Part shown: piece after piece, positions 29,970-57,507 of the stretch | Numbering within the stretch: the stretch's first letter is position 1 | Layout of the letters: each line of letters opens with the position of its first letter | NCBI GenBank assembly: GCA_963675595.2 | Contig: CAXXLZ010000002.1 | Coordinates: 1,184,001-1,248,000, forward strand | Length of the DNA: 64,000 nt | Direction: 5' to 3' | Origin: Thermodesulfobacteriota bacterium | GTDB lineage: Bacteria; Desulfobacterota; Desulfarculia; JACQYL01 | Translations under genes and position numbers: made by a program | Notes under the pieces: generated by a model | Database searches by the model: none | Seen by the model: only the letters and a program-made list of their open reading frames with translations | What the model was told of the DNA's origin: nothing

Positions 29970-30839
29970 TCAGGGCCGACGTCTTCTCCTGAGCCCCGCG
30001 AGCCCCAACAAACCCGAACCCAGGAGCCACACCGCGCCTGGAATGGGGACCGGGGCCACGTCGGCGAAGGCGTCCAGCTCACCTCCGGCAAAACCGCTGA
30101 TGCCTTCCACCTTGACATATTGAATCCAGTCGTAGCCCGATTCGGCAAGATCGAACCCGGTACCGCCGCCGGAACCGTTATAGAGGGCGATGGCATCGGC
30201 GGCGGACAGGCCGCCTGCAAGAAGCGTCGCGGCCAAGGAAGGATCCACCGGTTTGGTGAAGTCCGACTCCGTGTCCGTCCATTGGCCGTTTTCGCTGTCC
30301 CACAGATAGGCCTGCGTGGGAAAGGCGGTGTCGCAGTACGGACCGTTGTCATAGGTGTACCAGTTCTCCCCGTCCTGGCTCACCGACACGACGATCGGCT
30401 CGAACCAGGCGCCTCCCACGAGCATGTAGCTCTCCATGTCGCTGAGGTCGCTTACGAAACCGCTCCCCACATAGAAGCCGTTGCCGAAGACCAGCAGATC
30501 GACCCCATACGGGTTCAACGGATCGTCCTCGACCTGATGATCGAACGCCACCGTGACATACTGGCCGGTGTTGAGGGTGGTGATCAGCGTTTCGTCGTTC
30601 AACCCCACATTCCAGGCGGGTTCGACCAGCTTGACCCTCCCCGTCGCGGGCTCGAACCCTGTGTTCTTAAAGTTGGTCGCCGGTTTGCCCAGCACCGCAT
30701 AGGGATCGTTGTACTGGGTCGTTGCCGTCAGGCTGCTGCTGTAGTCCACCAGTTCCGTCGCATACTCGGAATAGCCGAAGGCCGGGGCGGCAAGCATCAA
30801 ATGGGCCATGCAAACAAGAAATATCTTTTTCGCTCTCAC
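29970..30839 (-). CDS. VPxP-CTERM (PEP-CTERM-like) surface protein, BtuH-like domain
   Basis: Signal peptide; C-terminal VPIPGAVWLLGSGLLGLAGLRRRRR; core GQYVTVAFDH..DLLVFGNGF..EP.VVSVSQDGENWY; paralog of 31572-32438. Confidence 0.85.
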   Translation of the reverse strand: MRAKKIFLVCMAHLMLAAPAFGYSEYATELVDYSSSLTATTQYNDPYAVLGKPATNFKNTGFEPATGRVKLVEPAWNVGLNDETLITTLNTGQYVTVAFDHQVEDDPLNPYGVDLLVFGNGFYVGSGFVSDLSDMESYMLVGGAWFEPIVVSVSQDGENWYTYDNGPYCDTAFPTQAYLWDSENGQWTDTESDFTKPVDPSLAATLLAGGLSAADAIALYNGSGGGTGFDLAESGYDWIQYVKVEGISGFAGGELDAFADVAPVPIPGAVWLLGSGLLGLAGLRRRRRP

Positions 30840-30896
30840 TGATTGGCTCTCCTCTTCGTTGCGGCATCGGAAATGATAACCGGGTCTCCTTCCACT

Positions 30897-31526
30897 CTAG
30901 CGAAGGGCTTTTCTGCGCCACCCCGCGAGCCCCAACAGACCCGAACCCAGGAGCCACACAGCTCCGGGGATCGGCACGGGCGCGGACGTGAACGGGATAT
31001 CCAACTGGTCATCCGCGTAATCCGGCAATGAAGCGAACCACATGATGGCATTGAGGCCTTCGTACTGACCGTCCGCGAGAAGCTCCTCGGTGATTCCGGC
31101 GGTGTTGAAATCCCACTCGCTGTCTCTCCAGGTCCCCCAACGGGCGTAGGGATCGCTGGTGCTCGCCAGGTTCCAACTGCCCTCCTCGACATGTAGGTGG
31201 ACCTCTTCTCCGTCGTCGTATCCGATGTTATAGACGAAGGCTCCTCCGTACCCGGTTGTCACCGTCAAAATGCCCGCATCGTTAAAAGCGGCGAGCATAT
31301 CCGATTCGTACTGATCTCCGTCCCAACGGTACCCGAAGGCATGTGACTCGGTAATGGTCGCTTCACCGTTGTCCAATCGGTTCCAGTCCACCACCAAAAT
31401 CGACTCGTTGGACCCGGAACCCGCCCAAGCGTCCACCTCCACCCAAGTTCCTTCGAAATTGTAAGGCGTTGCCTGAGCCGCCGTTGCGATCATGAGCAGA
31501 CAAATCATAACCAATAGCTTCCGCAC
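30897..31526 (-). CDS. VPxP-CTERM surface protein, DUF4430/transcobalamin-C-like domain
   Basis: GTG start with AAGGAG RBS; WAGSGSNESILVVDW..AFGYRWDG; CTERM tail; paralog of 33125-33856. Confidence 0.82.
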   Translation of the reverse strand: MRKLLVMICLLMIATAAQATPYNFEGTWVEVDAWAGSGSNESILVVDWNRLDNGEATITESHAFGYRWDGDQYESDMLAAFNDAGILTVTTGYGGAFVYNIGYDDGEEVHLHVEEGSWNLASTSDPYARWGTWRDSEWDFNTAGITEELLADGQYEGLNAIMWFASLPDYADDQLDIPFTSAPVPIPGAVWLLGSGLLGLAGWRRKALR

Positions 31527-31571
31527 GGCTTTTTCTCCTTTCATCTCCGGTCGTTTCACTTGCCGACGCGA

Positions 31572-32438
31572 TCAACGGCGTTTTCTTCTCCGAAGGCCCA
31601 CCAGTCCCAACAAGCCGCTCCCCAACAACCACACCGCGGCAGGCACGGGCACCGGCGCCACGTCGGCAAAAGCGTCGATTTCGCCGCCGGAGAATCCGTC
31701 AACGCCTTCCACCTTCACATACTGAATCCACTCGAACCCCGATTCGGCCAGGTCAAGCCCAACGCCGCCCGCGGAGCCGTCATACAAAAGCATGGCCTCA
31801 TAAGACGTGCCGGCCGCGGCGAAATCCGCCGCCGTCAGGTCCGGATTCACCGGTTTGGCGTAATCGTTTTCCTGATCCGTCCAGCCGTTCCCCGTGGCGT
31901 CATAAAGGTCCGGGTCCCAAACCCAGGGATTGGTCGGGTAATAGTCGTCCCCATAGGGGCCGTCGACATAGGTGTACCAGTCGATGCCGTTCTGACTTAC
32001 GGAGATCTGCAAAGGCTCCGCGAACACCCCACCTCCGATCCCATAGGCCCTGTGATCCGTGTCATCGTAGACAAATCCGCCGTATCCGGCGAAAAAGGAG
32101 TTCCCGTAGACAACGAGGTCCAATCCATACGGATTGTCGGCGTCGTCGGTGACCTGATGATCGAACTTGACCACGGCCCAGTCCCCCGTGCTGAAGGTGG
32201 TGATGGCATCGTCTCCCCAGGCCGCCTCCACAAGACTCACATGGCTCGTTCCCCCGCCCCACGCCGGAATGATCGTGGTGGGTTTTCCCAAAAGGTCGTT
32301 TGCATCGTTGTAAAGCCCGGAACCGTCCAGGCTCGCGGAACAATCCACCAACTCGGTGGCGAAAATCGAGGCGTGAGCCTGTCCGGCCGCCAAGATCAGC
32401 ACCGTGCAGAGCAGGACGAACCTACCTACCATTTTCAT
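31572..32438 (-). CDS. VPxP-CTERM surface protein, BtuH-like domain
   Basis: Signal peptide; GDWAVVKFDH..DLVVYGNSF..EPLQISVSQNGIDWY; VPVPAAVWLLGSGLLGLVGLRRRKRR. Confidence 0.85.
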   Translation of the reverse strand: MKMVGRFVLLCTVLILAAGQAHASIFATELVDCSASLDGSGLYNDANDLLGKPTTIIPAWGGGTSHVSLVEAAWGDDAITTFSTGDWAVVKFDHQVTDDADNPYGLDLVVYGNSFFAGYGGFVYDDTDHRAYGIGGGVFAEPLQISVSQNGIDWYTYVDGPYGDDYYPTNPWVWDPDLYDATGNGWTDQENDYAKPVNPDLTAADFAAAGTSYEAMLLYDGSAGGVGLDLAESGFEWIQYVKVEGVDGFSGGEIDAFADVAPVPVPAAVWLLGSGLLGLVGLRRRKRR

Positions 32439-32469
32439 TCGATTCTCCCTTTCCTCCTTTGCGCCCTCA

Positions 32470-33090
32470 TCATCCGACGGTCGTCCTGCGCCTTCTCCTG
32501 AGTCCCGCCAGACCGACCAACCCGCTGCCCAGCAGCCACACCGCGCCGGGTATGGGCACCGTGGAGCATTCTCTGACGATCCAGTTGTTGTTCACGATGC
32601 CGGCGGACTGGACCAAGCCCTGGTCTCCCGTTCTGCATTTCACGGTGCCCCCGAAGAAGTACACGCCGGCCACCTCGCCGGACCCGGTCACCCCGTACAT
32701 CCTGGGATAGCCCTTGAAATAATCGGTCGCCCCGAGGAAGCTCACCAGGTATTCGATCTCGTCCAGCGGCCAATCAGAGGGATCACCGCTCCTCCAGTAG
32801 CCGAGTTCAATGTCCGCGTTCACCAGAAGTTCAATCACTTCCGCCTTGGTGGCGTAGCGGAATCCCTCGAATTCTCCGCCATCCCCGAATTGGGTGGATA
32901 CATAGCTTCTCGTCATGCTCAGCCCGAAGGACATATCGAGCCATTCCAACCCGGTTTCCGTGTCCAAAGTGACGCTCCCAGTCCCGAAAACCGCATCGTC
33001 CCGTTCCAGCAGAGAAGCATGCGTTTGGGAAATCAGGAGCAGTGAAAGCACGAATAAAGACGCAAGTTGCACCCATCGTAATCTGCTCAT
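32470..33090 (-). CDS. VPxP-CTERM surface protein (DTETGLEWLD, Lcl/DUF1566-like domain)
   Basis: Signal peptide; TLDTETGLEWLD..FRYATKAEV; VPIPGAVWLLGSGLVGLAGLRRRRR. Confidence 0.85.
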   Translation of the reverse strand: MSRLRWVQLASLFVLSLLLISQTHASLLERDDAVFGTGSVTLDTETGLEWLDMSFGLSMTRSYVSTQFGDGGEFEGFRYATKAEVIELLVNADIELGYWRSGDPSDWPLDEIEYLVSFLGATDYFKGYPRMYGVTGSGEVAGVYFFGGTVKCRTGDQGLVQSAGIVNNNWIVRECSTVPIPGAVWLLGSGLVGLAGLRRRRRTTVG

Positions 33091-33124
33091 TTCTCAGCTT
33101 CCTTTTCTGTTTGATTTGTGCGCT

Positions 33125-33856
33125 TCAGCCGCGCATTCTGCGGCGAAAACCGATCAGACCCATCAAACCACTGCCCAGCAACCATATCGCGCCGGGAATG
33201 GGGACCACCGCCGCCTGTGCGGCCAAAGGAGTAATCGGCGCCGAACCGTCCCCGTATCCGGCAGTGCCGCTGAAACTCCAGCCGTCCCAGGAACCGTCCG
33301 ACAGATTGCGTGACGAAATCCCGTTTCCGGAATAGCCCCACTCGGAACCGCCGTCGCTTACCCAGTAACTCCAGTACCCGCTGTACCAGCCGTCCACGTA
33401 ATGATCGTCCGGGTCCTCGGGAGTCCCGTCTTCACCGTCCCATTCCCCCGGCACGTAACCGAACCCGTCATTGTCCAGGTCATAGCCGAAACCGGATACG
33501 GTGTAGGCGCCCCCGAACATGTCCCACCACTGCAGCCTGACGTACAGACGGGAATCGTCCCCGTCTAAGCCGCCCGCGTAGGGACCACCGCTCGCCGCAC
33601 CGTTTCCGAAAATAGCGGCGATCATATCGGCGCCGGTGGCCTCACCGTCCCATCGATAACCCCAAGCCAGACTCTCGGGTTCTTTGCCGTCGCGCCAGTC
33701 GATGACCATGGCGGCCTCATTGGAGCCTTCACCCACCCAGTAGGTAATGTCGTCAAAGCTGAAATCCACATACGGGTCCGCCGCGGCCGGCCCGCAGCAA
33801 ACCGCCGTCATCAGCAAAACCGCGGCGAATACCGTGGACAAATTCTTCATCTTCAT
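33125..33856 (-). CDS. VPxP-CTERM surface protein, DUF4430/transcobalamin-C-like domain; first gene of the operon
   Basis: Signal peptide from MKMKNL; DDITYWVGEGSNEAAMVIDW..LAWGYRWDG; GYWSYWV..WGYSGNGISSRNLSDGSWDGWSF; CTERM tail. Confidence 0.85.
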   Translation of the reverse strand: MKMKNLSTVFAAVLLMTAVCCGPAAADPYVDFSFDDITYWVGEGSNEAAMVIDWRDGKEPESLAWGYRWDGEATGADMIAAIFGNGAASGGPYAGGLDGDDSRLYVRLQWWDMFGGAYTVSGFGYDLDNDGFGYVPGEWDGEDGTPEDPDDHYVDGWYSGYWSYWVSDGGSEWGYSGNGISSRNLSDGSWDGWSFSGTAGYGDGSAPITPLAAQAAVVPIPGAIWLLGSGLMGLIGFRRRMRG

Positions 33857-34314
33857 TTTCAAGGCAACTCTCCTTGTGTGACGGAGCCTTCGCCATCGGA
33901 AGCGCTCCTCGTGCGCTATCACTTCTGTTCGTGCGTTCCTTCGCGTTCCGGCCCGGCGTTTTCGAAGGCCCACAAGCACGCTGCCCGGCGCCCACACGGC
34001 TTCCGGAAACGGACGCTTTATTCTTCGCATTGAATGCAGATTGGCTGATATCGCGAGGCGCGAGGGGAATCCGTGGAGAAAGTTCCCTTTCTCTTGGGAT
34101 TGACGGATACCGATGGATGGGTTATCCTAAGACTGTTCGTTCTCTCCTAGGAGAGGCGAACGGTACGCCCGGATTCGCGCCGGTGCGAAATTGGAAGGCC
34201 TGCATGGCGTCTTGGCGGAAGCGTGCGGGCCTTCTCCTTTTCTATCTTTTCTGTTCGAACGTTCTTCAGCACCTCCTTCCCATGGGCACGGCCCGTGCGT
34301 TTGCTTGTCCCCGC

Positions 34315-34466
34315 AAAAAAAAGGACAGCCGGGCTGCTGCAGAATGCGGCAACCCGGCTGTCCGGAGTCGAACCTGAAGCGTTTCCGGGAACACGCTTCC
34401 GTCCGAACGTCTTTAGGACCCGTGGCTTTCCGACCCCCGGTTTCCCGGGGTGTGGCTTTCTCTCAA
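34315..34466 (-). promoter_or_regulatory. c-di-GMP-I (GEMM-I) riboswitch with overlapping intrinsic terminator (predicted ON switch)
   Basis: Minus strand AAAG-CC-ACA-CCCCGG-GAAA-CCGGGG-GTC-GG-AAAGCC...GGTCCTAAAG...GGACAGCCGGGTTGCCG; terminator GGACAGCCGGGTTGC...GCAGCCCGGCTGTCC followed by a T run. P1 looks weak. Confidence 0.85.
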
Positions 34467-34621: not shown

Positions 34622-34682
34622 CGTTTACACCAATACCGTCGGCAATGCTTGTCCGATATTGCTAAAAACTTGGACAATGTTG
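34622..34682 (-). promoter_or_regulatory. 38-bp regulon motif copy (CTERM operon promoter) plus -10-like TAAACG
   Basis: CAACATTGTCCAAGTTTTTAGCAATATCGGACAAGCAT (34682 to 34645), then 17 bp, then TAAACG. Confidence 0.7.
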
Positions 34683-35074
34683 GCATCGGGCAGATTTTCC
34701 GTCTTCGGGGACTGAACCTTGCCGAAGAAAAACCCGGACCGAGCGCTTCGCGCTCAATCCGGGTCGGTTGGAGGTAGGCCGCTTCCCAGGGTGAAAGGCG
34801 GCTGGAAGGAAACGAGTCGTTATCAGTCGGAGAGGTGTAAAACGCGATCTCCCACGCATCGCGCTTCATCCCTCGTTACCGCGACGTCCTCCATGTGCGC
34901 TTCGTACATCGGAAATTGCGCGCCTTGCCTGTCATTGTTCTTCCTCCGTCCGCAAGACTCGTTCAATCAAAACGGATCGCCCCGACTCCGCCCATACGGC
35001 CGGCCGACATGCGGTGTAATTTCTCCGCTCGCAAGTCGCTTCATCACGAAACCGCGAAGGACCGATGCTCATTC

Positions 35075-35911
35075 TTATCCCGCCTTTTGATTCCGGGATC
35101 CGAGCAGCTTCCTTTCCGCTTTCATATAGTAGGAAGGCGCCACCCCCATGAGTCTCTTGAATATTCGAGTGAAATACGAGACGTTGTTGAAACCCACCGC
35201 GAAGCAGGCCTCCGATACGTTCATCTTTTGTTCCAGCATGAGAAGCTTCGCCGCCTCGATCCTCCTTTTGTTCAGATACTCACTGAAGGTAAGGGAAGTT
35301 TCCGATTTGAACACACGGGAAAAATGATACTTACTCATGCCGTTGGCCTTCGCCACCTGTTCCAACGTGATGGGTTGCATATAGTTCTGTTCGAGGTACA
35401 GAATGGATTTCTCCAGGTTGCGGGGAATCTTCCAATGTTCCCTGCGCAGGGAGACGATTCGATTCGATGGGTTGGACCCCATGCCGCGGAAGACGTGTTT
35501 GATATGGCCGAAGGCCAGCCGGTAAAAAAAATCTCGGAGTTTCTCGTGATGTTGAAGCATCACCAGGAAATCCTCGCTCTCTTGAACGTAGCAGGTCACC
35601 GGCTCCAGGCACAACAGGAGTTTGATGGACGGGCTTTCGGAAAGCACCTCCACCAGACCGAACCAATCTCCACGGCGTATCGTGCCGCATAACGTGCTGC
35701 TCTGGCAGGGGACCTCCCAATGAGCCGACCCGGATGCCAACACCCCGATCTGTTTCACCTTCTCTCCGTTTCGAAGCAGCGTGGACCCGGTGGGAAACAA
35801 CACGGGGCGCAAACCCAAAACCACCGATTTCACGGCCCCCTCGTTCAGATCGTTCAAGGGGCACAGCTCGTTCATTTCGGTTTCGACCTCAGCCCGGCAC
35901 ATCTTAGACAC
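35075..35911 (-). CDS. AraC-family transcriptional regulator with an N-terminal cNMP-binding(CAP)-like domain
   Basis: C-terminal ITLEQVAKANGMSKYHFSRVFK...VSEACFAVGFNNVSYFTRIFK; N-terminal FPTGSTLLRNGE..VLASGSA..TIRRGDWFGLVE resembles the cNMP beta-roll. Confidence 0.88.
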   Translation of the reverse strand: MSKMCRAEVETEMNELCPLNDLNEGAVKSVVLGLRPVLFPTGSTLLRNGEKVKQIGVLASGSAHWEVPCQSSTLCGTIRRGDWFGLVEVLSESPSIKLLLCLEPVTCYVQESEDFLVMLQHHEKLRDFFYRLAFGHIKHVFRGMGSNPSNRIVSLRREHWKIPRNLEKSILYLEQNYMQPITLEQVAKANGMSKYHFSRVFKSETSLTFSEYLNKRRIEAAKLLMLEQKMNVSEACFAVGFNNVSYFTRIFKRLMGVAPSYYMKAERKLLGSRNQKAG

Positions 35912-36117
35912 CTCTTTCGTTCCAAAAAAAAGATCTCACCTCGGACAACCAAGGCAAGACCTGGAACTCGCCGGTGAAGGACAGGATACACGGGGGCCCG
36001 ACGTCGCGCTTAGGGCAACGACCTCATGACCGGGACCCGGCGCTTGCGCCCGGTCCGGCCCGCTCGATCCTTCTCGGCATTCCACCATGCCTTGATTCCC
36101 GAGGGCATACAGTGGAG

Positions 36118-36285
36118 ATCATCTCGGCAGGTCTCCTGGCTTGTGGTTCGTCCTACTCGCCGCACCTTCCCGGACCGAAACGTCCAGTGGTGAATAGCGG
36201 CTTTCGTCCCCACACACAGTGGCGATCCCGCAGCGGCTTCCGCCCCGCTTTCCCTATTATGCCCTTACCGGGCGCCTGAGATGAT
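36118..36285 (-). promoter_or_regulatory. cobalamin (B12) riboswitch upstream of the AraC gene
   Basis: Minus strand P1 ATCATCTC/GAGATGAT, AGGCGC, AATAGGGAA, GCCACTGTG, CCACTG, GGGAAGG, B12 box AGCCAGGAGACCTGCC. Confidence 0.92.
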
Positions 36286-36358
36286 AACGGATGTCATTAT
36301 GCTACTAGGTACACTTCTTGTATACCCTCAACAGCGGCGGTTGGCAAACACGACCCGC

Positions 36359-36406
36359 CTCTGCTCTCAGCTCTCAGCTCTCTGCTCTCTGCTCTCTGCT
36401 CTCAGG
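36359..36406. repeat. heptamer tandem repeat (CTCWGCT) x ~6.7
   Basis: CTCTGCT CTCAGCT CTCAGCT CTCTGCT CTCTGCT CTCTGCT CTCAGG, at the PKD-gene stop. Confidence 0.85.
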
Positions 36407-39219: not shown

Positions 39220-39280
39220 ATTATGGATGAAAAATTCGGCCCATTCTTGTCCGTTATTGCTCAAAATCAGCATTATCTTG
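39220..39280 (-). promoter_or_regulatory. 38-bp regulon motif copy (PKD gene promoter) plus -10 CATAAT
   Basis: CAAGATAATGCTGATTTTGAGCAATAACGGACAAGAAT (39280 to 39243), then 17 bp, then CATAAT. Confidence 0.72.
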
Positions 39281-39413
39281 CTGTCTCGCCTTTATGCCCC
39301 GATTCTCGAAACGGATTCCATGCGTCCCATTCGGCCGTTCAACTGTGGGGAATATATATAAGGGATCCTCCGGACGGAAACCGATCCGGACCTCGCAAAA
39401 AAAAGCATGACGG

Positions 39414-39474
39414 CAAGGAAGTCCATATTTTCCGCAATATAAGTCCAGCATCCTTCCCAAAGACCGGATATACC
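39414..39474 (+). promoter_or_regulatory. 38-bp regulon motif copy (dockerin/cohesin operon promoter) plus -10-like TATACC
   Basis: CAAGGAAGTCCATATTTTCCGCAATATAAGTCCAGCAT (39414-39451), then 17 bp, then TATACC. Confidence 0.7.
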
Positions 39475-39508: not shown

Positions 39509-39607
39509 TTTCGAAAAAGCCACACCCGTCGTGAGGCGGGGCCGGAAAACTTCGGGTCTCCAGAGAGACGGCCGGGTTGCCGAAAGGCAGCCCGGCTTTT
39601 GTTTTTT
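39509..39607 (+). promoter_or_regulatory. c-di-GMP-I (GEMM-I) riboswitch with overlapping terminator (predicted ON switch)
   Basis: P1 TTTCG/CGAAA; AAAAG-CC-ACA-CCCGTC-GTGA-GGCGGG-GCC-GG-AAA; GGGTTGCCG; terminator GCCGGGTTGCC-GAAA-GGCAGCCCGGC-TTTTGTTTTTT. Confidence 0.88.
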
Positions 39608-46635: not shown

Positions 46636-46748
46636 TAAGCGGAGGCTGCATGATACACCCCGAACCCGTCTCCCTGTACCGAAATGAGCCCGCCCATCAT
46701 CTCATGACGTCCCGTAACCGGCCTTTTTCAACGGACTAAGGTGCGCAT

Positions 46749-48128: not shown

Positions 48129-48270
48129 GGTGCTTCCAGCGGATCGGAGTACCACGGGCAATGAGGTTCCCTAAGGTCGAGCAATGGGTTTGCGGCTGAA
48201 ACGCAAGAGGAAAGGCTTCCACGGAAATGAGGGCCGTGACGCTCGTCACGGTCAGGCGGACAGGAAAGCT

Positions 48271-48663
48271 ATGAACATCATGATTCGGATCAGACTAGGT
48301 GCGGCGATTCTACTTCTCACGGCGGGGCTCGGGTATTCTCCGGTCCACAGCGAAACACCCGTCGGAAACTTCAGCCAAGGGAACATCCACGAAGTGGTCG
48401 TACCTCGCTTCGGAGCCCACTTGATCCAGACCCGACAACCGGTGAAGCGGGTCTCGGTGGCGGAACCGACCATCGCGGATGTGAAGGTCATCAGTCCCTT
48501 CGATCTGCTCATAGAAGGGCGAGGACAGGGGATCACCACGTGCGTCGTCTGGTACAAGACCGAGGGGGGAGAAATCTACCGGGTGAAGGTGAATCGAGGG
48601 GCCGAAGTGGAGACCCTGTTGGGAACGGAGCTCTCTCAGGATAAGTCGTTATGGGGATGGTAA
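48271..48663 (+). CDS. stand-alone secretin N-terminal (pilus formation N) domain protein
   Basis: Signal peptide; VKRVSVAEPTIADVKVISPFDLLIEGRGQGITTCVVW parallels the N-domain of the following secretin. Confidence 0.75.
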   Translation: MNIMIRIRLGAAILLLTAGLGYSPVHSETPVGNFSQGNIHEVVVPRFGAHLIQTRQPVKRVSVAEPTIADVKVISPFDLLIEGRGQGITTCVVWYKTEGGEIYRVKVNRGAEVETLLGTELSQDKSLWGW

Positions 48664-48668
48664 TCGGA

Positions 48669-50120: not shown

Positions 50121-50150
50121 TTCCTAACGGATTTCCCCAAAGCGAGGACG

Positions 50151-51389
50151 ATGATGCCTGAGAAGTTGCGGGGTCTGCTGGTCAGCGACAGAACCGCCCT
50201 TGCGGCGGATATGCGGGACGAGATTGCCTCCAGAGTCAACCTGGAAGTGATCTTTACATCGTCCAATGCGGCTTATCCTCTGATCAAGGAAAAGGCGCCC
50301 AAGCTCCTTTTCATTGATGCGGTCCGGAATCCCGAGTCGGCCATGAGCCTCGCCGCACGAGTAAGACGGTTCCTCCCAGGCACTCTGGTGTTCGCCCTGT
50401 GCGAATCCAGGGATCCGGACCTCATCCTGCGCTTCCTGCGCGCCGGCGTCAGCGACTACCTCGCCTATCCGCCGGAGGCCTCGCACGTACTCATCTCCAT
50501 AGACACGGCCCTTGACGCGGAACGACGCAAACGAAGAGAGGGAGAAGTTCTCGCGGTGTTCAGCTGCAAAGGCGGACAGGGTGTGACGACCACGGCGGTG
50601 AATCTCGCCGATCATGTTCGGACCCTGACCGACGCCAAGGTCCTCCTCGTGGACTTCAATTTCCGATCCGGCGACGTGGGGCTGCAACTGGGCGGGCATA
50701 CTACATACGGTTTCACACGATTTATCCACGACATCGACAGACTGGACGAGAATCTTCTCTTCTCTTCCACGGAGCTACATCCCAACGGATTCTACCTCAT
50801 GTCCGCGAAACCGGATATGCGAGCCGAGGACGGAATCGCTCTGGAGCAGATCAGCCAGGGGTTTCACATATTGAAGGAGTTTATGGACTTTACCATCGTG
50901 GATCTGGGCAGCGACTTCAACGAGAGAACCGCAACCGTGTTGGATGTGGCGGATCGAATCCTTTTGGTGGCCCAACAATCCGTGCCCGCCGTGCGCGGCA
51001 TCGGCCGCGTGCTGTCGCTTTTCAGAGAAGCGGGATACGGCGACGAAAAAGTGAAGATCGTGATCAATCGGTTCGAAGGAAACCACATCGTGGGTCTTAA
51101 GGAAATCGAACGGGCCCTGCAGCGGAACGTCTGCGCAACGGTGGCCAACGATTACGCGGCGGTGTCGGATGCCGTGACCCAAGGGGACCTCCTCACCAAA
51201 GCCCATGACTCTTCTCGCGCGAACGCGGACCTGCGCCTCCTCGCGAGGACGCTCACCGGCATCCCGGAGAACGGCCACCGCCCCGACTCCAAATGGAAAC
51301 GGTTGCTCAAACGTTTTCCGTCTTCTCTGGGCATCCCCGCACGAACCCGCAAAGAGCCGCAGCCTGAAACGCATGAGGACGCATCATGA
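50151..51389 (+). CDS. cpaE: CpaE/TadZ (receiver-like domain + MinD-like ATPase)
   Basis: KGGQGVTTTAVNLA deviant Walker A; VLLVDFN; IVINR. Confidence 0.88.
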   Translation: MMPEKLRGLLVSDRTALAADMRDEIASRVNLEVIFTSSNAAYPLIKEKAPKLLFIDAVRNPESAMSLAARVRRFLPGTLVFALCESRDPDLILRFLRAGVSDYLAYPPEASHVLISIDTALDAERRKRREGEVLAVFSCKGGQGVTTTAVNLADHVRTLTDAKVLLVDFNFRSGDVGLQLGGHTTYGFTRFIHDIDRLDENLLFSSTELHPNGFYLMSAKPDMRAEDGIALEQISQGFHILKEFMDFTIVDLGSDFNERTATVLDVADRILLVAQQSVPAVRGIGRVLSLFREAGYGDEKVKIVINRFEGNHIVGLKEIERALQRNVCATVANDYAAVSDAVTQGDLLTKAHDSSRANADLRLLARTLTGIPENGHRPDSKWKRLLKRFPSSLGIPARTRKEPQPETHEDAS

Positions 51390-52744
51390 GTCTGGTCGAG
51401 CGACTCAAAGGGGGGATCAATGAGGGCAAGCCGCCTGATTGCAAGCTTCCCGGCGGCCGCCCGGACATGTCCGCCTACTACAAGCTTAAGAATAAAGTCC
51501 ATTCGAGACTCGTCGAAACACTGGATTTGGGAAGCATACCGGACCTCCCCAAAGAGACTCTCGAGGACTCCATCGGGGAAGCCGTCACGGAAGTCGCAAT
51601 CAAGGAGGGATTCCCGCTCAACAAAAACGAACAAGACGCCCTGGTCTCCGACGTATTGAACGAAATACGCGGTCTGGGACCCATCGAGCCTTTGATCCGG
51701 GACGATACGGTTCAGGATATTCTGGTGAACACCTTCGAGCACGTGTACGTCGAAAGAGAGGGGGTCCTGGAACTCACACCGATCCGTTTCCGAGACAATG
51801 AGCACCTAATGCAGATCATTGATAAGATCGTGTCTTCCGTGGGTAGAAGAATCGATGAGTCGTCTCCCATGGTGGATGCCAGACTATGGGACGGCTCCCG
51901 CGTCAACGCGATTATTCAGCCGGTGGCTCTCGACGGACCCATACTCTCGATCAGAAGATTCGGCTACCGGCCTTTGAGAATCGAAGATTTGGTGCAAAGA
52001 CGAAGCATCCCGGCCGAGATTGTCGAGTACCTGCAAGCCGCCATCCGGGCGAAACTCAACATGCTCATTTCAGGAGGAACCGGAAGCGGCAAGACCACGT
52101 TGCTCAACATCCTTTCCGCTTTTATTCCGAGTTCCGAGCGCGTGGTAACCATCGAGGACAGCGCGGAACTCCAACTGCAGCAAGCCCACGTCGCCCGACT
52201 GGAATCCAGACCTCCCAACGTCGAGGGGAGAGGCGAAATCACTCTGAGAAGCCTGGTCCGCAACAGCCTGAGAATGCGTCCCGATCGAATCATCGTGGGC
52301 GAGGTGAGGGGCGCCGAAGCCCTGGACATGCTCCAGGCCATGAATACCGGACACCAGGGTTCCATGAGCACCATTCACGCCAACACTCCTCGCGACGCCC
52401 TGTCCAGGCTGGAGATCATGGTGCGCATGGGCGCCCTGCAAATCTCCGAAGGAGCCCTGCGAAGCCTCATGGCGAGCGCGGTGAACATCGTCGTTCACTT
52501 GGAACGTCTGTCCGACGGCAAAAGAAGACTCCTTTCCGTGTCCGAAGTCGTGGGAATGGAGGGTGAGGTCATCGCCATGCAGGAGGTGTTCGTCTTTGAA
52601 CGGCGGGGCGTTTCCTCCTCCGGCCGCATACGGGGTGAGTTCAAAGCCACGGGTGCGCCTTCCATTTACGTCGAGCATATGAAGCAATACGGAATAACGA
52701 TCGACCCCGCAGTGTTCAAACTGCAAAAGCCTGTGGGGGATTAG
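51386..52744 (+). CDS. cpaF: Tad assembly ATPase CpaF/TadA
   Basis: GGTGSGKTT, TIEDSAEL, LRMRPDRIIVGEVRG, AMNTGH. Confidence 0.95.
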   Translation: MSLVERLKGGINEGKPPDCKLPGGRPDMSAYYKLKNKVHSRLVETLDLGSIPDLPKETLEDSIGEAVTEVAIKEGFPLNKNEQDALVSDVLNEIRGLGPIEPLIRDDTVQDILVNTFEHVYVEREGVLELTPIRFRDNEHLMQIIDKIVSSVGRRIDESSPMVDARLWDGSRVNAIIQPVALDGPILSIRRFGYRPLRIEDLVQRRSIPAEIVEYLQAAIRAKLNMLISGGTGSGKTTLLNILSAFIPSSERVVTIEDSAELQLQQAHVARLESRPPNVEGRGEITLRSLVRNSLRMRPDRIIVGEVRGAEALDMLQAMNTGHQGSMSTIHANTPRDALSRLEIMVRMGALQISEGALRSLMASAVNIVVHLERLSDGKRRLLSVSEVVGMEGEVIAMQEVFVFERRGVSSSGRIRGEFKATGAPSIYVEHMKQYGITIDPAVFKLQKPVGD

Positions 52745-52747
52745 AGC

Positions 52748-53707
52748 ATGCAATCAGTGGTGTTCATTCTGGTGTTTGCTTCGGTGCTGCTTTCGTTCGT
52801 GGGATTGTATCTTCTTTGGACAAACCGGCGCACCGTTTCCAAAGACTTCGTACTGGAACGAATGGTTCCGCGCGAAACGGGGGATGCCCTGGCGTCGGAG
52901 CAGCGTACGGCCCGCTTGAGAAACGCGGGTTGGGTGGAAACCGTGTGCGCCCCTTTCATCAGGCTCGATCTCCTGGCCCCCCTGCTCTCTTCCATCGGGA
53001 TTCCCTGTTCGGCCGCAACCTTTCTGTGGATTGTCCTCCTCTCCGGTGGGCTCCCATTCGCGCTGTGCCTCGCGGCCTCGGGTTCCCTAAGCGTGGGTTT
53101 TATCGCGGCCTCTATCGGCCTTTCCGTGCCCTTCGCCTACTTGACGTACCGAAGAAAGAGAACGGAGAGGAAGCTGGTGGAGCAATTTCCCGATGCCCTC
53201 GAATTTACCGTTCGCGCTCTTCGCGCCGGTCAGTCTTTGGACAAGGCCCTGCAGGGCCTCGCATCCAACCTCACGGAACCCATGTCCGGTCAAATCCGCT
53301 TCATTTACGATGAAATGTCCCTGGGACTTCCCTTCGCCGAAGCCTTCAGAAGGTTCGAATCGCGATTTCCCAAGGTAGCCGAAGTGAAGATATTCTGTAC
53401 CGCTCTGATCGTACACAGAGAAACCGGAGGAAATCTTGTCCGCATCCTCGAAGTATTGAGCGACAACATCAGGCAACGCATGCGACTGGACTCCCAGATA
53501 AAAGCGACAACAGCCGAAGTCAGGATCACGGGCATTATTTTGGGGCTGCTTCCCTTCGCCCTGCTGGGAGTCTTCTACCTTCTGAATCCCGAGTATATTC
53601 GGGTGCTGTTCATCCATCCGGTGGGACGGAAACTGCTCCTCTCCGCCGCGGGTCTCGAACTTATCGGTTTTTCGGTCATGCGTGCCATGACCAGGGTGGA
53701 GATGTGA
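52748..53707 (+). CDS. tadB: TadB inner-membrane platform protein
   Basis: QFPDALE..RALRAGQS, RETGGNL. Confidence 0.9.
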   Translation: MQSVVFILVFASVLLSFVGLYLLWTNRRTVSKDFVLERMVPRETGDALASEQRTARLRNAGWVETVCAPFIRLDLLAPLLSSIGIPCSAATFLWIVLLSGGLPFALCLAASGSLSVGFIAASIGLSVPFAYLTYRRKRTERKLVEQFPDALEFTVRALRAGQSLDKALQGLASNLTEPMSGQIRFIYDEMSLGLPFAEAFRRFESRFPKVAEVKIFCTALIVHRETGGNLVRILEVLSDNIRQRMRLDSQIKATTAEVRITGIILGLLPFALLGVFYLLNPEYIRVLFIHPVGRKLLLSAAGLELIGFSVMRAMTRVEM

Positions 53708-53710
53708 CCA

Positions 53711-54622
53711 ATGGATCGGCTTCTCCCTGCCGCCGCCTTTGTCGCCGTACTGGCGTTGTGTATGTCGGCGGTGTCGGCATACGAAAAACGAAAAAGAAGA
53801 GAGCAGTTGCTGCAACGTCTTTCCGTATCTTCGGACACGCAGGAATCCGGCTTAAAAGAACAGCTTCTGGAGTTCCTCGGGTCCATGGGACGTTTTGGTG
53901 TGCCCAAAAAAGAGGAGGAAGCCCTGCGGATTCGCAAGGACCTTCTCCACGCCGGTTTTCACGGCGAAGACATTCTTCTTCAATATTACGGTGCTCGTTT
54001 GTCCCTCGGCTTGGCATTCGCGATTCTGTTTCCCCTGTTCCTCGCGATGGTAGGCAAGTCCGTGTCACAGAACCTTTTCTACATTCCTTTCGCCCTGACT
54101 TTGGGCTACTACCTGCCCCCCTTGTTCGTCGCGAGAGCGAAGAAGATACGCGGACGAAGGATATTCCGTGAGCTCCCGGACACCATTGATTTGCTGGTCA
54201 TCGGTCTGGAAGCCGGTTTGAGCCTGGATGCCGCACTGTACCGGGTAAGCAGGGAAATGAAGAACATGGCGCCCACCGTGAGCAAGGAGTTTGGAAGGTA
54301 CTTCTTTGAAACACAGGGAGGAATTCCGAGAAATGAGGCGCTTTCCAACATCAAGAAGCGTTCTTCCGAAGAAGGACTCCGTTCCTTGGTGGACGTCTTG
54401 CTGCAGTCCGTCAAATTCGGAACGGACATGAGTGCCGCTTTGAGAGCATATGCGGAATCCATGCGTTTTCAACGAGTCGTTTTAGCGCAGGAGAAAGCGG
54501 CGAAGATAGCGCCCAAGCTCACCATACCCATGATCCTCTTCATCTTGCCGGCCCTTGTCATCGTCATCCTGGGTCCGGGGGCCATCCGCCTTCTGGAACG
54601 GCTGTCCGGGAGCTTCTTCTGA
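53711..54622 (+). CDS. tadC: TadC inner-membrane platform protein
   Basis: ELPDTIDLLVIGLEAGLSLDAA, QSVKFGT, KLTIPMILFILPAL..ILGP. Confidence 0.9.
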   Translation: MDRLLPAAAFVAVLALCMSAVSAYEKRKRREQLLQRLSVSSDTQESGLKEQLLEFLGSMGRFGVPKKEEEALRIRKDLLHAGFHGEDILLQYYGARLSLGLAFAILFPLFLAMVGKSVSQNLFYIPFALTLGYYLPPLFVARAKKIRGRRIFRELPDTIDLLVIGLEAGLSLDAALYRVSREMKNMAPTVSKEFGRYFFETQGGIPRNEALSNIKKRSSEEGLRSLVDVLLQSVKFGTDMSAALRAYAESMRFQRVVLAQEKAAKIAPKLTIPMILFILPALVIVILGPGAIRLLERLSGSFF

Positions 54623-55449
54623 TGGAATCTCAACGCTTGGCGACAACATCAAGAACCACCACCCGGGTTCGATTCCTTCTTGTTTCTATTTGTTTGGTTT
54701 GCTTGGTGCTTACCACGGGATGCCGGTCCCATCTGGAAAATACTCGGGGAGAATCAACGGAGGAGCTCAAAAAGGAGGCCCTGGAAAGGAAACAGGCTCT
54801 CGATGAGCTGGATTCCAAATGGCGGACCGAAGAACCGGACCACGTGGCCCTGGCTCGCATCATGGTGGACCGCAAGCTGTACGATGTTGCGTTGCGCCTT
54901 CTCCGGGAATCCGATGCACCGGACAGTGCGGAACGCTTTTACCTGGAAGGTGTGTGTCATCGGGAAAAGAGCCGTTATGAAACGGCGATTCTTCAATTCA
55001 AGAAAGCAATCGAGTTGTCCCCGCGTTACTCACAGGCCTACGAGGGAATCGCTCTTACGCACGACCTCATGGGACAGAGGGAAAGCGCACACGAGTACTA
55101 TGCAAAGGCCATCGAGGAGAATCCTTCCAGCTCTCGATTCTACAACAACTTCGGTGTGTCGTTGCTGGTGGCCGGCCGATACGAGGAAGCGGCGGAGCGC
55201 TTGGAGACCTGCGTACGGCTGGATCCGGAGTCTCTCCGCGCCTTCAACAACCTTGGCCTGGCCTACGGGCTGGCGGGCAGGGAGGAAGACGCCCTTAAAG
55301 CCTTCTTGAAGGCCGGAGATACGGAACATGCTTACAGGAACATGGCCTTCATGTACCGGGTCCGAGGAAACAAAGAAAAGAGTCGAGAAATGGTCCATAA
55401 GGCCCTGGAGCCGAAAGACATCAAGGATGAAGGTGCCAAGAAACCCTGA
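54622..55449 (+). CDS. tadD: TPR lipoprotein, TadD-like pilotin
   Basis: Lipobox LTTGC; multiple TPRs (YNNFG, FNNLGLAYG); position after tadC. Confidence 0.8.
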   Translation: MESQRLATTSRTTTRVRFLLVSICLVCLVLTTGCRSHLENTRGESTEELKKEALERKQALDELDSKWRTEEPDHVALARIMVDRKLYDVALRLLRESDAPDSAERFYLEGVCHREKSRYETAILQFKKAIELSPRYSQAYEGIALTHDLMGQRESAHEYYAKAIEENPSSSRFYNNFGVSLLVAGRYEEAAERLETCVRLDPESLRAFNNLGLAYGLAGREEDALKAFLKAGDTEHAYRNMAFMYRVRGNKEKSREMVHKALEPKDIKDEGAKKP

Positions 55450-55519
55450 ACCCGGCAGGCCTTTTCCGGCGGACTGAACCAGGGGTTCCGGCATCCCCTG
55501 CCCTGAGTCGGATACGGTA

Positions 55520-57037
55520 ATGACAAAGCGAGGAAAAGACATGGGACCCGCCGACGACCAAAAGCACCACCGGCGCACGTCCTGGACGGGAAACGAACAA
55601 GGTTCCGTGGTCCTCGTGGTGGCTGCGGGCATGCTGGTCATTCTCGGATTCCTGGCCCTCGTCCTGGACGGCGGCTACCTCTACGCAACGAGGAACAAAT
55701 ACCAAAACGCCGTCGAGGCCGCGGCAATGGCGGGCGCCATCCATTTGTGCGGGTCCGATCCCGAACTCACGGCTCGGGAAATCGCTCGGGAGAACGACGT
55801 CCCTTATTCCGAGGAGGAAGGTCTCGTTGTCGTTTTCGGTTTCTATGACGAGCACGACGACTACGGGGACTTCCCGGAATACAAGGACTTCGTTGAAGAC
55901 CCGTTTCCCGAAACGAGCAGAAACGAGGCGGTGCGCACCGGCGGCACCGATCCCGAGTATAACAACGCCGTGCTGGTTTCCCTGAACGGAAGCGTTGACA
56001 CCGCCCTGGCCGGCGTATTGGGATACCATGTGGTGCAGGTTTCCGCGGCCGCGGTGGCCTATCTGGAAAGGTACCTCATGGTCTCTTTGGAGGAGGACGG
56101 CGAAGGAATCACCACCGCTTCGAAATCCTGGGATTGGACCGACGGAGGAGGCAACAGCAACCATAACCAGCCTGAATTCCGCAACGGCAATCTTTACAGC
56201 AACGGAGACATTACCTTTTTCACGGGCACCACCTGCACCGGCCCGACCTTTGTCGATTCCAAGGCCTATGCGCATGGAACCGTGAGTCCGGAAGAACTCG
56301 GGACCAACCAGGCTTCGCTGCTGACTCCTCCCGGGACTGATTGGGAGGCCCTGCGGGAAGCGGCGGAAACCCACGGCAAGGTCATCGACTCGCTCTTCTT
56401 CCAGACTCTTCCTCAATACAACAAAGCCCTACGCAAAGGCGTGGATCGCTACGGAAACTGCTACCGATGCAATACGGACGGGTCAAACCCCTATTTCACC
56501 CCGCGTCCGGGCAATCACGACGGCAGAACCTATTACGTGAGTGAAGACGTGGGAGATTCCCTCTGGATCGGCGACGTTCAGTGCAGCGAACTGTACTCCG
56601 AAGAATACGACGTAACCAACCTTACCCTGGCGTTCGAATCGGACCACCTGGGATTCAATCACGACACTCCCGTCATCACGTGGGGAGGCGAGGAAGCGGA
56701 CGAAACGGTTCGGTTTTACGGGAGGGATTTGATGATGGGAGCCGTCTCCGATTACGAATACGCCAGTGACAGCGGCAATCTATTGGAGGGCGTGGTTTTC
56801 AATGCTGAAAGGGACTTCGGATACCGGCCCGCCGGCGGCGGCTTCGGGGATGCGGAGGATTTGCCCCCGGAGATTCGGAAGCTTCGGGTCTTTGCGGGGG
56901 AACGCATCATCATCGGAGGGTACGAAGGATACATAGCGCATCAGGACCGATACCCGGTCGGCTTTGACGCCAATTTCGGCCCGCCTTGCCCACCCTCCAT
57001 GGTGCGCCTGGGGATGCTCGAACACACAGACGACTGA
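55520..57037 (+). CDS. tadG: TadG-like pilin with a large C-terminal putative adhesin domain
   Basis: EQG|SVVLVVA..LALVLDGG..QNAVEAAAMAGA; unrecognised acidic, Cys-containing C-terminal region. Confidence 0.82.
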   Translation: MTKRGKDMGPADDQKHHRRTSWTGNEQGSVVLVVAAGMLVILGFLALVLDGGYLYATRNKYQNAVEAAAMAGAIHLCGSDPELTAREIARENDVPYSEEEGLVVVFGFYDEHDDYGDFPEYKDFVEDPFPETSRNEAVRTGGTDPEYNNAVLVSLNGSVDTALAGVLGYHVVQVSAAAVAYLERYLMVSLEEDGEGITTASKSWDWTDGGGNSNHNQPEFRNGNLYSNGDITFFTGTTCTGPTFVDSKAYAHGTVSPEELGTNQASLLTPPGTDWEALREAAETHGKVIDSLFFQTLPQYNKALRKGVDRYGNCYRCNTDGSNPYFTPRPGNHDGRTYYVSEDVGDSLWIGDVQCSELYSEEYDVTNLTLAFESDHLGFNHDTPVITWGGEEADETVRFYGRDLMMGAVSDYEYASDSGNLLEGVVFNAERDFGYRPAGGGFGDAEDLPPEIRKLRVFAGERIIIGGYEGYIAHQDRYPVGFDANFGPPCPPSMVRLGMLEHTDD

Positions 57038-57159
57038 GGACCGCGTTCGGAAGTTCCCCAGTCTATGACTGCGGAATATGATGCATTGACGTCTGATGCG
57101 CAACACTCTCGCCATGCGGCCGGCCCACATCAATGCCTGAAATGAAGGGAGAATGTCCC

Positions 57160-57507
57160 GTGAAGAGACTCGAGAACCGTGAAAGGAAGTCTGTTCGACG
57201 CAGGACCATGAGGACGCCTTGGCGCTGTTTGCTCCTGTGCGTGGGCCTCACCGCCTGCGCCTGTTCCGCGACGCCGGAACGCGCCGCCATGGAAACCAAC
57301 GCGGCCTTTCGAGGCTATTTCGAGGCTTCCTTCACCGCTCAGGTGATCAACCGGAATGCTCCGGCCGATGCAACACCGGTGGAAGGCTATCCCGGTGAGA
57401 TCGCGGCAAAGGCCTATCAGGACTTCAAGGATGGCTTCGGGGAAGCGAGTTTCGAAGAGCAGGTGGGACAAATGCAACTGGGAGATGAGGCTTTCGCCGA
57501 CAAATAG
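57160..57507 (+). CDS. small Tad-associated lipoprotein
   Basis: Lipobox LTAC/AC; AQVINRNAP..PVEG.PG..A..AYQ; start 57160 or 57208. Confidence 0.7.
   Translation: MKRLENRERKSVRRRTMRTPWRCLLLCVGLTACACSATPERAAMETNAAFRGYFEASFTAQVINRNAPADATPVEGYPGEIAAKAYQDFKDGFGEASFEEQVGQMQLGDEAFADK

Follow-up and report, generated by a model that had tools for sequence, protein, structure and literature searches.

The DNA analysed here, called the window below, is a stretch of 64,000 nucleotides from a Thermodesulfobacteriota bacterium (contig CAXXLZ010000002.1, positions 1,184,001 to 1,248,000), and unless another contig is named all coordinates are positions in it. Between 29970 and 57507, a cobalamin riboswitch precedes the gene of an AraC-family regulator, and four transcription units around this gene share one promoter element. 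Two of the four units carry a riboswitch of the cyclic di-GMP (c-di-GMP)-I type. The units encode secreted proteins with a VPLPA/PEP-CTERM-type anchor, a PKD protein, a beta-propeller protein and a Tad pilus. Together they may form one regulon of surface genes that responds to vitamin B12 and, in part, to c-di-GMP.

Riboswitches, regulator and shared promoter element

In an Rfam scan of the whole window, a cobalamin riboswitch (RF00174) was found at 36110-36294(-) with 103.2 bits against a gathering score of 31.5 (E 9.9e-25). The match covers the covariance model at full length (positions 1-189 of 189), and the predicted ligand is adenosylcobalamin (AdoCbl). The aptamer lies about 208 nucleotides 5′ of the ATG (35902) of a 275-residue AraC-family protein encoded at 35075-35902(-). 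In Pfam and NCBIfam scans, this protein has a double helix-turn-helix (HTH), with 82.9 bits for HTH_18 and 77 bits in two stretches for HTH_AraC (Pfam scores). The original prediction, made from the sequence alone, of a cobalamin riboswitch in front of an AraC gene is confirmed by the full-length match and the HTH domains. It had not mentioned the N-terminal domain of the regulator, which resembles a cyclic nucleotide-binding domain (Pfam cNMP_binding, 33.6 bits; cut-off 27.5).

The araC gene has a sigma-70-like promoter of its own directly 5′ of the aptamer (36296-36324(-), TATACA-17-CATAAT, 9 of 12 consensus matches). Between the aptamer and the ribosome-binding site there is a 14-pair terminator-like hairpin followed by T8 (35931-35962(-)), presumably an OFF platform, and 3′ of the gene another terminator-like hairpin (34731-34765(-); 16 pairs, 10 GC) sets araC apart from the next unit. 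Thus, araC seems to be a separate transcription unit with an apparent termination platform. The OFF logic of the B12 riboswitch is assumed from its class, and the promoter and terminator scans used here and below give consensus matches, not evidence of function. The same kind of scan reported no terminator-like site between the stop codon of the PKD gene (36402) and the araC promoter. Transcription from the PKD promoter might therefore run on into araC and give positive feedback, which the riboswitch would still gate. A heptamer, CTCTGCT, is repeated in tandem (6.4 copies, 94% matches) at 36359-36403, precisely in the interval that separates the PKD stop codon from the araC promoter, and is possibly a slippage-prone spacer. 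Homologues of the regulator are rare. Five proteins were found at E ≤ 1e-10; only two of the five, 99% and 67% identical to it, have the cNMP-plus-AraC architecture in common, and a third is 33% identical.

Two aptamers of the c-di-GMP-I clan (CL00126) were found in the same whole-window scan, RS1 at 34344-34465(-) with 60.9 bits and RS2 at 39510-39585(+) with 68.8 bits. These Rfam matches bear out the original claim of two c-di-GMP-I riboswitches in two units. The top model for both is the GGC variant RF03167, whose gathering score of 59 is barely exceeded. In both aptamers, the 3′ strand (GACAGCCGGGUUGCC) doubles as the 5′ arm of a hairpin that precedes a U run. Accordingly placed terminators with a T run lie at 34315-34363(-), where the 5′ arm is the 3′ strand of the RS1 aptamer, and at 39570-39607(+), overlapping the 3′ strand of the RS2 aptamer. 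Aptamer and terminator are mutually exclusive in all four aptamers compared (two in the window and two on the related contig described below). Since a ligand-stabilised aptamer would exclude the terminator sharing its 3′ strand, RS1 and RS2 are expected to be ON switches. In the cmscan alignments, both window aptamers have a G at model position 10 and an A at position 37 and retain the C after AG/GG. In what I take to be the Vc2 numbering, these residues are G20, A47 and C92, a combination of the canonical c-di-GMP type and neither of the GGC type nor of the A20 type, which is specific to cyclic AMP-GMP (c-AMP-GMP). Mapped in this way, the two aptamers would carry a canonical c-di-GMP pocket. 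The RS1 leader was also checked for a cobalamin-aptamer remnant, and none was present in it.

The shared promoter element was located with a position weight matrix (PWM) on both strands of the window (127,908 positions), which found exactly four copies: 34644-34690(-) before RS1, 39242-39288(-) before the PKD gene, 39406-39452(+) before RS2 and 44336-44382(+) before flp. The units aligned at the element are the five-gene CTERM operon, the PKD gene, the propeller operon and flp. When each copy was left out of the matrix in turn, it scored 28.8-35.5 bits and ranked each time right after the three copies in the matrix, while no unrelated position exceeded 4.6 bits. Across the four promoters, 22 of 95 aligned columns are invariant and a further 29 agree in three of the four copies. 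A single 38-bp motif at four units had been claimed from the sequence; the four copies stand, but the conserved core is nearer 47 nucleotides.

A -10-like hexamer occupies the identical column of all four copies: TAGAAT for flp (44399-44404), CATAAT for PKD (39225-39220), TATACC for RS2 (39469-39474) and TAAACG for RS1 (34627-34622). The regions 17 bases 5′ of these hexamers are poor and mutually similar -35 sequences (GATCAT, AAGAAT, CAGCAT, AAGCAT). Abutting the poor -35 are two half-sites that begin with GCAA and lie 21 bp apart (34682-34671 and 34662-34651 in the RS1 copy). Their centres fall near -61.5 and -41.5 when the transcription start is set about 7 nucleotides past the -10. The self-similarity of the element has its maximum, 0.397, at an offset of 21; other offsets give mostly 0.16-0.29, with 0.35 at offset 10 and 0.357 at offset 29. 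The I1-I2 sites of AraC are direct repeats with 21-bp spacing that overlap the -35, the textbook arrangement for activators of the AraC/XylS type where the promoter is weak. The element is built like an AraC-type activator site, and binding by the regulator of this locus is predicted from this similarity. The PWM scan of the window found no copy of the element 5′ of the B12 riboswitch and araC. A sigma-54 or extracytoplasmic function (ECF) promoter was considered for the element and set aside, because by eye the element is unlike a -24/-12 or ECF-type promoter; no scan was run for either.

Surface proteins and the Tad locus

Five consecutive VPLPA/PEP-CTERM-type proteins are encoded within 29970-34030(-), behind RS1, and a sixth at 41404-42087(+). 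The original count of five anchored proteins was therefore right for the operon and becomes six with the anchor protein of the propeller unit. At the extreme C-terminus, the proteins have the motif, the transmembrane helix and the basic cluster of VPLPA/PEP-CTERM substrates. All six match TIGR03370 at E ≤ 0.01 in NCBIfam, two over the cut-off and four under it, while PF07589 is over the Pfam cut-off in one of the six. The anchor segments are 56-82% identical in pairwise comparison. No exosortase family was found by Pfam and NCBIfam among the window open reading frames (ORFs) scanned, which were 47 in number, those outside the region of interest having been chosen by a crude script based on G+C at third codon positions.

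The first gene behind RS1 (33125-33862(-)) encodes a CTERM protein of a family called F2 here, characterised by a WGYRWDG motif; its AlphaFold2 model has a confidence score (pLDDT) of 90.8. It is followed by a CTERM protein (32470-33090(-)) whose ectodomain has no family in NCBIfam and the other domain scans. Then come two CTERM proteins of another family, F1, at 31572-32438(-) and 29970-30839(-), 51% identical to each other, with an F2 paralogue between them at 30897-31559(-) that is 31% identical to the first F2 protein (E 6e-23). A terminator-like hairpin at 29899-29938(-) (17 pairs, 12 GC) closes the operon.

The F2 family is widespread, with 172 homologues at E ≤ 0.001. Its hosts include Desulfosarcina ovata (two genes, tags 71040 and 71100), Desulfosarcina cetonica, Desulfobacca acetoxidans (P0030, 47% identical) and members of the Syntrophobacteraceae, Planctomycetota, Hydrogenedentota, Armatimonadota and others. 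An alignment was made from 55 of the 120 listed homologues, hand-picked for length and coverage, and the two window paralogues; among these 57 sequences, PEP-CTERM was matched in 43 and Dockerin_1 in two. Several of the listed homologues bear the precomputed label PF18962. Two (P0009 and P0093) bear the label PF28005.1, which is absent from the Pfam copy scanned, and the F2 domain may already be defined as this Pfam family.

The PKD gene (36402-39143(-)) encodes a secreted protein of 914 residues that begins with a domain called F4 here (mature N-terminus HFLWM), continues with six PKD stretches and ends with two C-terminal repeats of about 100 residues, without a CTERM anchor. The six stretches, identified by Pfam, agree with the PKD stalk that had been read from the sequence.

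Behind RS2, the first gene (39776-41275(+)) encodes a secreted beta-propeller protein of 499 residues with a dockerin-like Ca-loop tail at the C-terminus. Its AlphaFold2 model has a pLDDT of 91.7. With Foldseek, at least 500 fold matches were obtained at E ≤ 0.001, headed by G-beta and luciferin-regenerating enzyme. The propeller family itself counts 1519 representatives at the same E limit. Fifty sequences were aligned (49 of the 150 listed matches, chosen for coverage, and the query); 16 of them match Dockerin_1, 13 TSP_3 and 5 PEP-CTERM. Since 16 of 50 match Dockerin_1, the tail is probably dockerin-like by family context, and the same propeller would be tethered in alternative ways in its relatives. 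The dockerin-like propeller of the original prediction is borne out by the structural matches and this family context.

The next gene (41404-42087(+)) encodes an F4 domain, possibly cohesin-like, with a VPLPA-CTERM anchor. This ectodomain is 55% identical to the N-terminus of the PKD protein. F4 has only ten non-self homologues, all of which were aligned with the two window copies. The mature N-terminus, directly after the signal peptide, reads H-F/Y-L/I/V-W, and the H and the W are invariant in all 12 members. The cohesin-like domains that had been proposed keep a weak lead and reach no threshold: Cohesin is matched below the Pfam threshold in two of the 12 members (best E 0.024), and an Atlas search gave a weak cohesin lead at rank 10 with a score of 0.82. 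DUF4198 is likewise matched below the threshold, in one of the 12 (E 0.053). The window's own propeller and F4 proteins had no Dockerin_1 or Cohesin match in the domain scan. A complex prediction for the F4 domain and the dockerin-like tail scored 0.07 against a mark of 0.32, which counts neither for nor against binding.

Two further genes follow at 42408-44227(+), encoding a 185-residue membrane or secreted protein and, by Pfam and NCBIfam, a DUF1573 Ig-like protein. The consensus scan reported no plus-strand terminator between 42087 and 42408, and the two genes may be co-transcribed with the propeller unit.

The fourth unit begins with the Flp pilin gene (44483-44650(+); PF04964, 65 bits). 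It is followed at 44912-57037(+) by genes for a TadE-like protein, two CpaB proteins, a PilN-domain protein, a secretin, a CpaE/TadZ-like protein, the TadA ATPase, TadB, TadC, a TPR protein and a TadG-like protein. The Pfam and NCBIfam scans identified Flp, TadA, TadB/C, CpaB/RcpC, the secretin, TadZ/CpaE and pseudopilins, so that the Flp/Tad machine recognised in the original prediction is confirmed as an apparently complete gene set. A prepilin peptidase (TadV/CpaA) was not among the window ORFs scanned and may lie elsewhere. The tandem cpaB paralogues (45238-48128) have two RcpC-domain stretches apiece and are roughly double the usual length. A small ORF without a family match (57133-57507(+)) closes the region, and its place in the system is uncertain. 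It had been suggested that the Tad apparatus might export the surface proteins or import corrinoids; nothing was found in support of either role, and both were dropped from the explanation.

Related loci and known systems

Is this arrangement found elsewhere? I performed a profile search of genome contigs with the alignment of the AraC regulator, which gave 423 confirmed relatives, mostly generic HTH proteins, and returned 80 loci. The window's own genome and the 67%-identical relative were not among these 80. Seventy-nine of the loci are generic AraC-HTH loci, mostly of Ruminococcus, and only the remaining one, L001, was informative. It is a 5.8-kb contig of a metagenome-assembled genome of the Desulfobacteraceae. 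Its sequence starts within the gene of an AraC homologue, of which the C-terminal 159 residues are present, with 44% identity to the regulator over residues 122-275. A first tandem follows, with a cobalamin aptamer at 618-845 and then a c-di-GMP-I aptamer at 946-1091, and behind it are three VPLPA/PEP-CTERM proteins. A second tandem (cobalamin aptamer 4226-4440, c-di-GMP-I aptamer 4554-4722) lies before another secreted protein. The third protein of the first operon (2794-3618) is a DUF4465 protein (E 2.2e-54) with a CTERM anchor. The c-di-GMP aptamers of L001, assigned by Rfam to plain c-di-GMP-I (RF01051), have nearly the same core sequence as RS1 and RS2 and nearly the same terminator design. 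Eight of the 79 other AraC-HTH loci (134 kb) served as a control and were without any Rfam match. Thus, the combination of a B12 riboswitch, araC and CTERM genes, for which a synteny search in other Desulfobacterota had been proposed, does recur, on L001 with c-di-GMP-I aptamers in tandem.

Comparison of the proteins gave less. A pair of Lcl_C-like proteins of L001 matches the window protein at 32470-33090 in the anchor only, and an NCBIfam scan of the L001 proteins found anchors only. Before both cobalamin aptamers of L001 (583-607 and 4190-4214), there is a sequence GCAATAT...N...GCAA with the GCAA motifs 21 bp apart, recalling the half-sites of the window. These pairs are too near the aptamer for an activator site of the window type, and they lie within a 160-nucleotide duplication, hence the two copies are not independent.

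A decayed remnant of CTERM-anchor coding sequence (...PFPEAVWAPGSVLVGLRKRR...) was found in the window at 33863-34030(-), between the RS1 terminator and the first intact gene and in frame with the F2 gene. In L001, the corresponding position (4924-5034(+)) is taken by a well-preserved anchor that lacks both ectodomain and start codon. Since anchor remnants lie at matching places in the window and L001, it is suggested that the CTERM units have been assembled via recombination at the repeated anchor-coding sequence (76-nucleotide repeat family D1).

Other relatives are known from contig records. For the AraC regulator (P0002, 67%), F2 (P0018) and F4 (P0278), the records give homologues on contigs of 11,255 nucleotides, and judged by this equal size the three are probably on one contig. 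The AraC homologue P0001 (99%) and the F4 homologue P0277 (75%) are each recorded on a contig of 51,033 nucleotides. The equal sizes suggest that the linkage of these genes is conserved. If P0001 and P0277 do share a contig, which would be that of a close relative, the surface proteins may be evolving at a far higher rate than the regulator.

The closest published system is described by Sherlock et al. (2022, RNA Biol, PMC9481103). The available part of that paper reports two AdoCbl/c-di-GMP-I tandems and one AdoCbl/c-AMP-GMP tandem in Desulfobacca acetoxidans, all belonging to a cluster of seven riboswitches within 7 kb. The tandems are predicted to be NOT A AND B gates, and c-di-GMP binding was confirmed by in-line probing; conductive pili are speculated upon, and the genes regulated by the tandems are left unexplained in that part (PMC9481103). 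The window has both signals in common with these tandems, as well as the predicted truth table (NOT AdoCbl AND c-di-GMP) and the ON c-di-GMP aptamer with a terminator of its own. The phylum is the same, D. acetoxidans encodes an F2 homologue, and L001 has the cis arrangement twice. In contrast to the tandems and to L001, the window aptamers never lie in one leader: about 1.6 kb separate the cobalamin aptamer from RS1, an interval that holds araC, a terminator and a promoter. The AdoCbl riboswitch of the window is placed on a transcription factor, and its signal would reach four promoters in trans. Moreover, the Tad pilus and PKD promoters of the window have no c-di-GMP riboswitch.

The surface B12-binding proteins BtuG, BtuH and BtuJ1/J2 (DUF4465) of Bacteroides, from btuB loci under riboswitch control, offer a second comparison. 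B12 binding is shown for eight divergent DUF4465 proteins in the available text of Clarke et al. (2026, PMC13398666), where linkage of this family with genes of TonB-dependent and ABC transport is described as usual and the BtuG-type B12-binding family has the number PF16819. That text has no mention of PEP-CTERM, c-di-GMP, exosortase or Desulfo-. Both systems have surface proteins and induction at B12 limitation via a riboswitch, which for the window is predicted; a beta-propeller is present in the window and a DUF4465 member on the related L001. In contrast, the window has no match to DUF4465 or PF16819 and no adjoining BtuB/BtuFCD, its proteins would be anchored by VPLPA/PEP-CTERM segments or a dockerin-like tail instead of a lipoprotein anchor, and it adds a c-di-GMP gate and a co-regulated Tad pilus.

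The regulator and its element resemble AraC/XylS class II activators (AraC at I1-I2, RhaS, XylS), a comparison made from general knowledge, in the C-terminal double HTH, the N-terminal sensor or dimerisation domain and the direct repeats, which are spaced 21 bp and extend to the -35 of a weak promoter. They differ in the cNMP-binding-like N-terminus and in the control of synthesis by a cobalamin riboswitch, and the DNA binding is predicted. With PEP-CTERM/exosortase systems and c-di-GMP-controlled Tad pili, the locus has in common the sorting signal (motif, transmembrane helix, basic cluster) and the complete Tad set, while it differs in having no exosortase gene in the window and in its link to B12, which was not found in the literature searched. 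As in cellulosome-type cohesin-dockerin systems, the propeller tail has two Ca-loop/helix segments, 16 of 50 relatives have Dockerin_1, and the neighbouring gene codes for an anchored domain whose cohesin leads are weak; unlike in those systems, the window sequences reach no Pfam threshold, and the pairing is putative.

The literature searched contained nothing joining PEP-CTERM, B12, riboswitch and surface, and nothing on point joining a cobalamin riboswitch with AraC or PEP-CTERM. The claim of an undescribed system must therefore be narrowed. The logic gate is already in print, at least in the available part of PMC9481103, and B12-binding surface proteins are known in Bacteroidetes; what is new, within that literature, is the link between them and the relay through a regulator.

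Readings of the regulon

The following mechanism is proposed. At low intracellular AdoCbl, the araC transcript would run through, and the AraC/cNMP protein would bind the shared element and activate the four weak promoters; here I infer that the regulator is an activator. B12 would be sensed at a single point, and the regulator would pass the signal on in trans to all four units, namely the Tad pilus, the PKD protein, the five-gene CTERM operon and the propeller/anchor operon. At two of the promoters, transcription would reach the genes only when c-di-GMP closes the aptamer. The trans wiring would yield the same gate, NOT AdoCbl AND c-di-GMP, for which relatives use tandem riboswitches in cis. 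The output would be a cell-surface apparatus of sessile, B12-poor life, made of the Tad pilus and anchored or docked proteins. It would aid corrinoid supply by surface binding, by Tad or adhesin fastening to surfaces or neighbours with corrinoids, or by both.

Because the tandem recurs on L001 beside an AraC homologue and before CTERM proteins, the window may be a trans-wired variant of the published gate. In general, the genes under B12 riboswitches serve B12 supply or encode B12-independent bypass enzymes. This general role and the presence of DUF4465 in the L001 operon suggest B12 acquisition as the purpose. The riboswitch, the ON switches, the AraC-style promoter architecture, the recurrence on L001 and the published tandems all speak for the regulatory part of the interpretation first drawn from the sequence. 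In that interpretation, corrinoid capture by the surface proteins is a putative role, and the transport by the Tad apparatus found no support. For the reading as a whole, that is, a four-promoter regulon of B12 acquisition that is on at low AdoCbl and two units of which also need c-di-GMP, I consider the chances to be about even.

A number of results weigh against it. No known B12-binding family was found in the window proteins with Pfam and NCBIfam, and DUF4465 (PF14717) was unmatched at E ≤ 10 by all 11 window proteins or segments scanned. As the original prediction had stated for BtuB and BtuFCD, no TonB-dependent receptor, BtuF-like binding protein or ABC (ATP-binding cassette) importer was present in the 47 window ORFs scanned. 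The propeller has a generic 7-blade fold; no BtuG was among the 50 fold matches listed, and none of the 50 aligned propeller sequences matched the BtuG-type family PF16819. A BtuG-like propeller, once considered, is unsupported given these two results. Only the CTERM anchor is clearly common to the surface proteins of the window and L001, and a profile comparison of F1 with the L001 protein at 5040-5822 gave a weak match (E 0.0013, probability 18%). The window element is absent from L001, where the best PWM score was -12, and what ties the regulator to the element is position and architecture. Rfam prefers the GGC variant for RS1 and RS2, just over the cut-off, and the assignment to c-di-GMP follows from my own mapping of the pocket. 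Relatives of the organism are corrinoid producers, which would weaken the rationale of scavenging.

When the AlphaFold2 model of F2 was compared with the PDB by Foldseek, none of the 183 matches (E ≤ 10) reached E ≤ 0.001, and the best had E 0.64. Among the weak, non-significant matches are 3u7z_B (E 0.91, template modelling (TM) score 0.60 on the target), which I take to be a DUF4430, transcobalamin-like protein, and five chains of transcobalamin, the isolated beta domain 5no0 among them (E 1.5-4.2). This transcobalamin-like resemblance may serve as a lead only. Profiles of F2 and F4 searched against PDB sequences gave nothing under E 0.1. That some protein of the window binds corrinoids is possible, but I would call it doubtful.

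A serious rival is a regulon of adhesion or aggregation only, in which the products would be ordinary biofilm-matrix and attachment factors, no corrinoid would be bound, and B12 would be a physiological cue of metabolic state or community context. Sessile life is the usual setting of c-di-GMP ON switches, PEP-CTERM proteins and Tad pili alike. This rival also agrees with the lack of a known B12-binding family in the window, with the unnamed PEP-CTERM proteins that are the only nearest Atlas clusters of F1, and with weak NCBIfam matches to the flocculation-associated PepA, which cover the anchor segment only. The role that B12 riboswitches usually have in supply or bypass speaks against it. In addition, an operon of like kind on L001 has a DUF4465 domain, B12-binding according to the available text of PMC13398666, behind an AdoCbl riboswitch. 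I regard this rival as possible and somewhat improbable. Even if it were true, the locus would still show clearly that pilus and matrix genes can be placed under a vitamin signal.

It is also conceivable that the neighbourhood is coincidental, the element being the target of some regulator from another locus and the AraC protein under B12 control serving other genes. The binding of AraC to the element is predicted only, the element is absent both 5′ of araC and from L001, and AraC-family genes are very common, as the mostly generic HTH proteins among the 423 confirmed relatives illustrate. On the other hand, the element has the direct-repeat layout of AraC-type sites at -61.5/-41.5, araC sits amid the four units, an AraC homologue adjoins again on L001, and homologues of AraC, F2 and F4 probably lie together on the contig of 11,255 nucleotides. 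Coincidence thus seems quite unlikely to me. Capture of cobalt or another metal for B12 synthesis, in which F4 on the PKD protein and on the anchor would bind metal via its N-terminal histidine, is very improbable: metal binding by this histidine, invariant like the W in 12 of 12 members, is conceivable, and cobalt homeostasis genes are under B12 riboswitch control (PMC9481103, available part), but the DUF4198 match (E 0.053) is sub-threshold and confined to a single member, and Cohesin is equally weak in two of the 12. That DUF4198 binds metal through an N-terminal histidine is moreover my assumption, which I count against metal capture.

To return to B12 acquisition, a broader form of this reading can be put forward. 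Sulfate-reducing Desulfobacterota may own an unrecognised apparatus for corrinoid foraging or attachment to partners, which would be induced by B12 starvation, licensed by c-di-GMP and equipped with new corrinoid-binding folds. It would consist of surface proteins, anchored via exosortase or tethered via dockerin, and a Tad pilus. The first candidate for such a fold would be the WGYRWDG domain of F2, given its faint transcobalamin-beta-like matches. The apparatus would have two interchangeable wirings, the cis tandems of L001 and D. acetoxidans or the riboswitch-controlled AraC/cNMP activator acting in trans in the window. I hold this broader form to be a speculative and rather unlikely one. 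B12 is made by few microbes and needed by many, and its acquisition at the surface of bacteria other than Bacteroidetes is largely unknown. If the reading were true, surface B12 capture would extend from the lipoproteins of gut Bacteroidetes to exosortase-sorted proteins of anaerobic sediment bacteria, among which there would be candidates for new binding domains. The two wirings would be a natural re-wiring of a two-input gate, in cis or in trans, with a bearing on regulatory evolution and synthetic biology. The rare, orphan AdoCbl/c-di-GMP gates of the published tandems (PMC9481103, available part) would also be explained, the regulated genes being surface proteins for B12-poor sessile life.

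Finally, the surroundings of the region were inspected. Its G+C content (0.57-0.60) is equal to that of the flanks and gives no compositional sign of recent transfer. Directly before it, a stretch of lower G+C (16001-28000; 0.53-0.54 against 0.57-0.60 elsewhere) contains a tRNA gene (17124-17197), several ORFs without a family match and a DDE transposase gene (25695-27305). Further upstream there is a group II intron (RF02003, RF00029) at 13230-15226(-) with a reverse transcriptase/maturase ORF at 13386-14837. Two genes for DUF3786 proteins flank the region at 586-1227(-) and 58391-59386(-). The latter protein has an N-terminal iron-sulphur (Fe-S) domain like that of the gamma subunit (corrinoid protein) of acetyl-CoA decarbonylase/synthase, which hints at a corrinoid-dependent metabolism in the organism.

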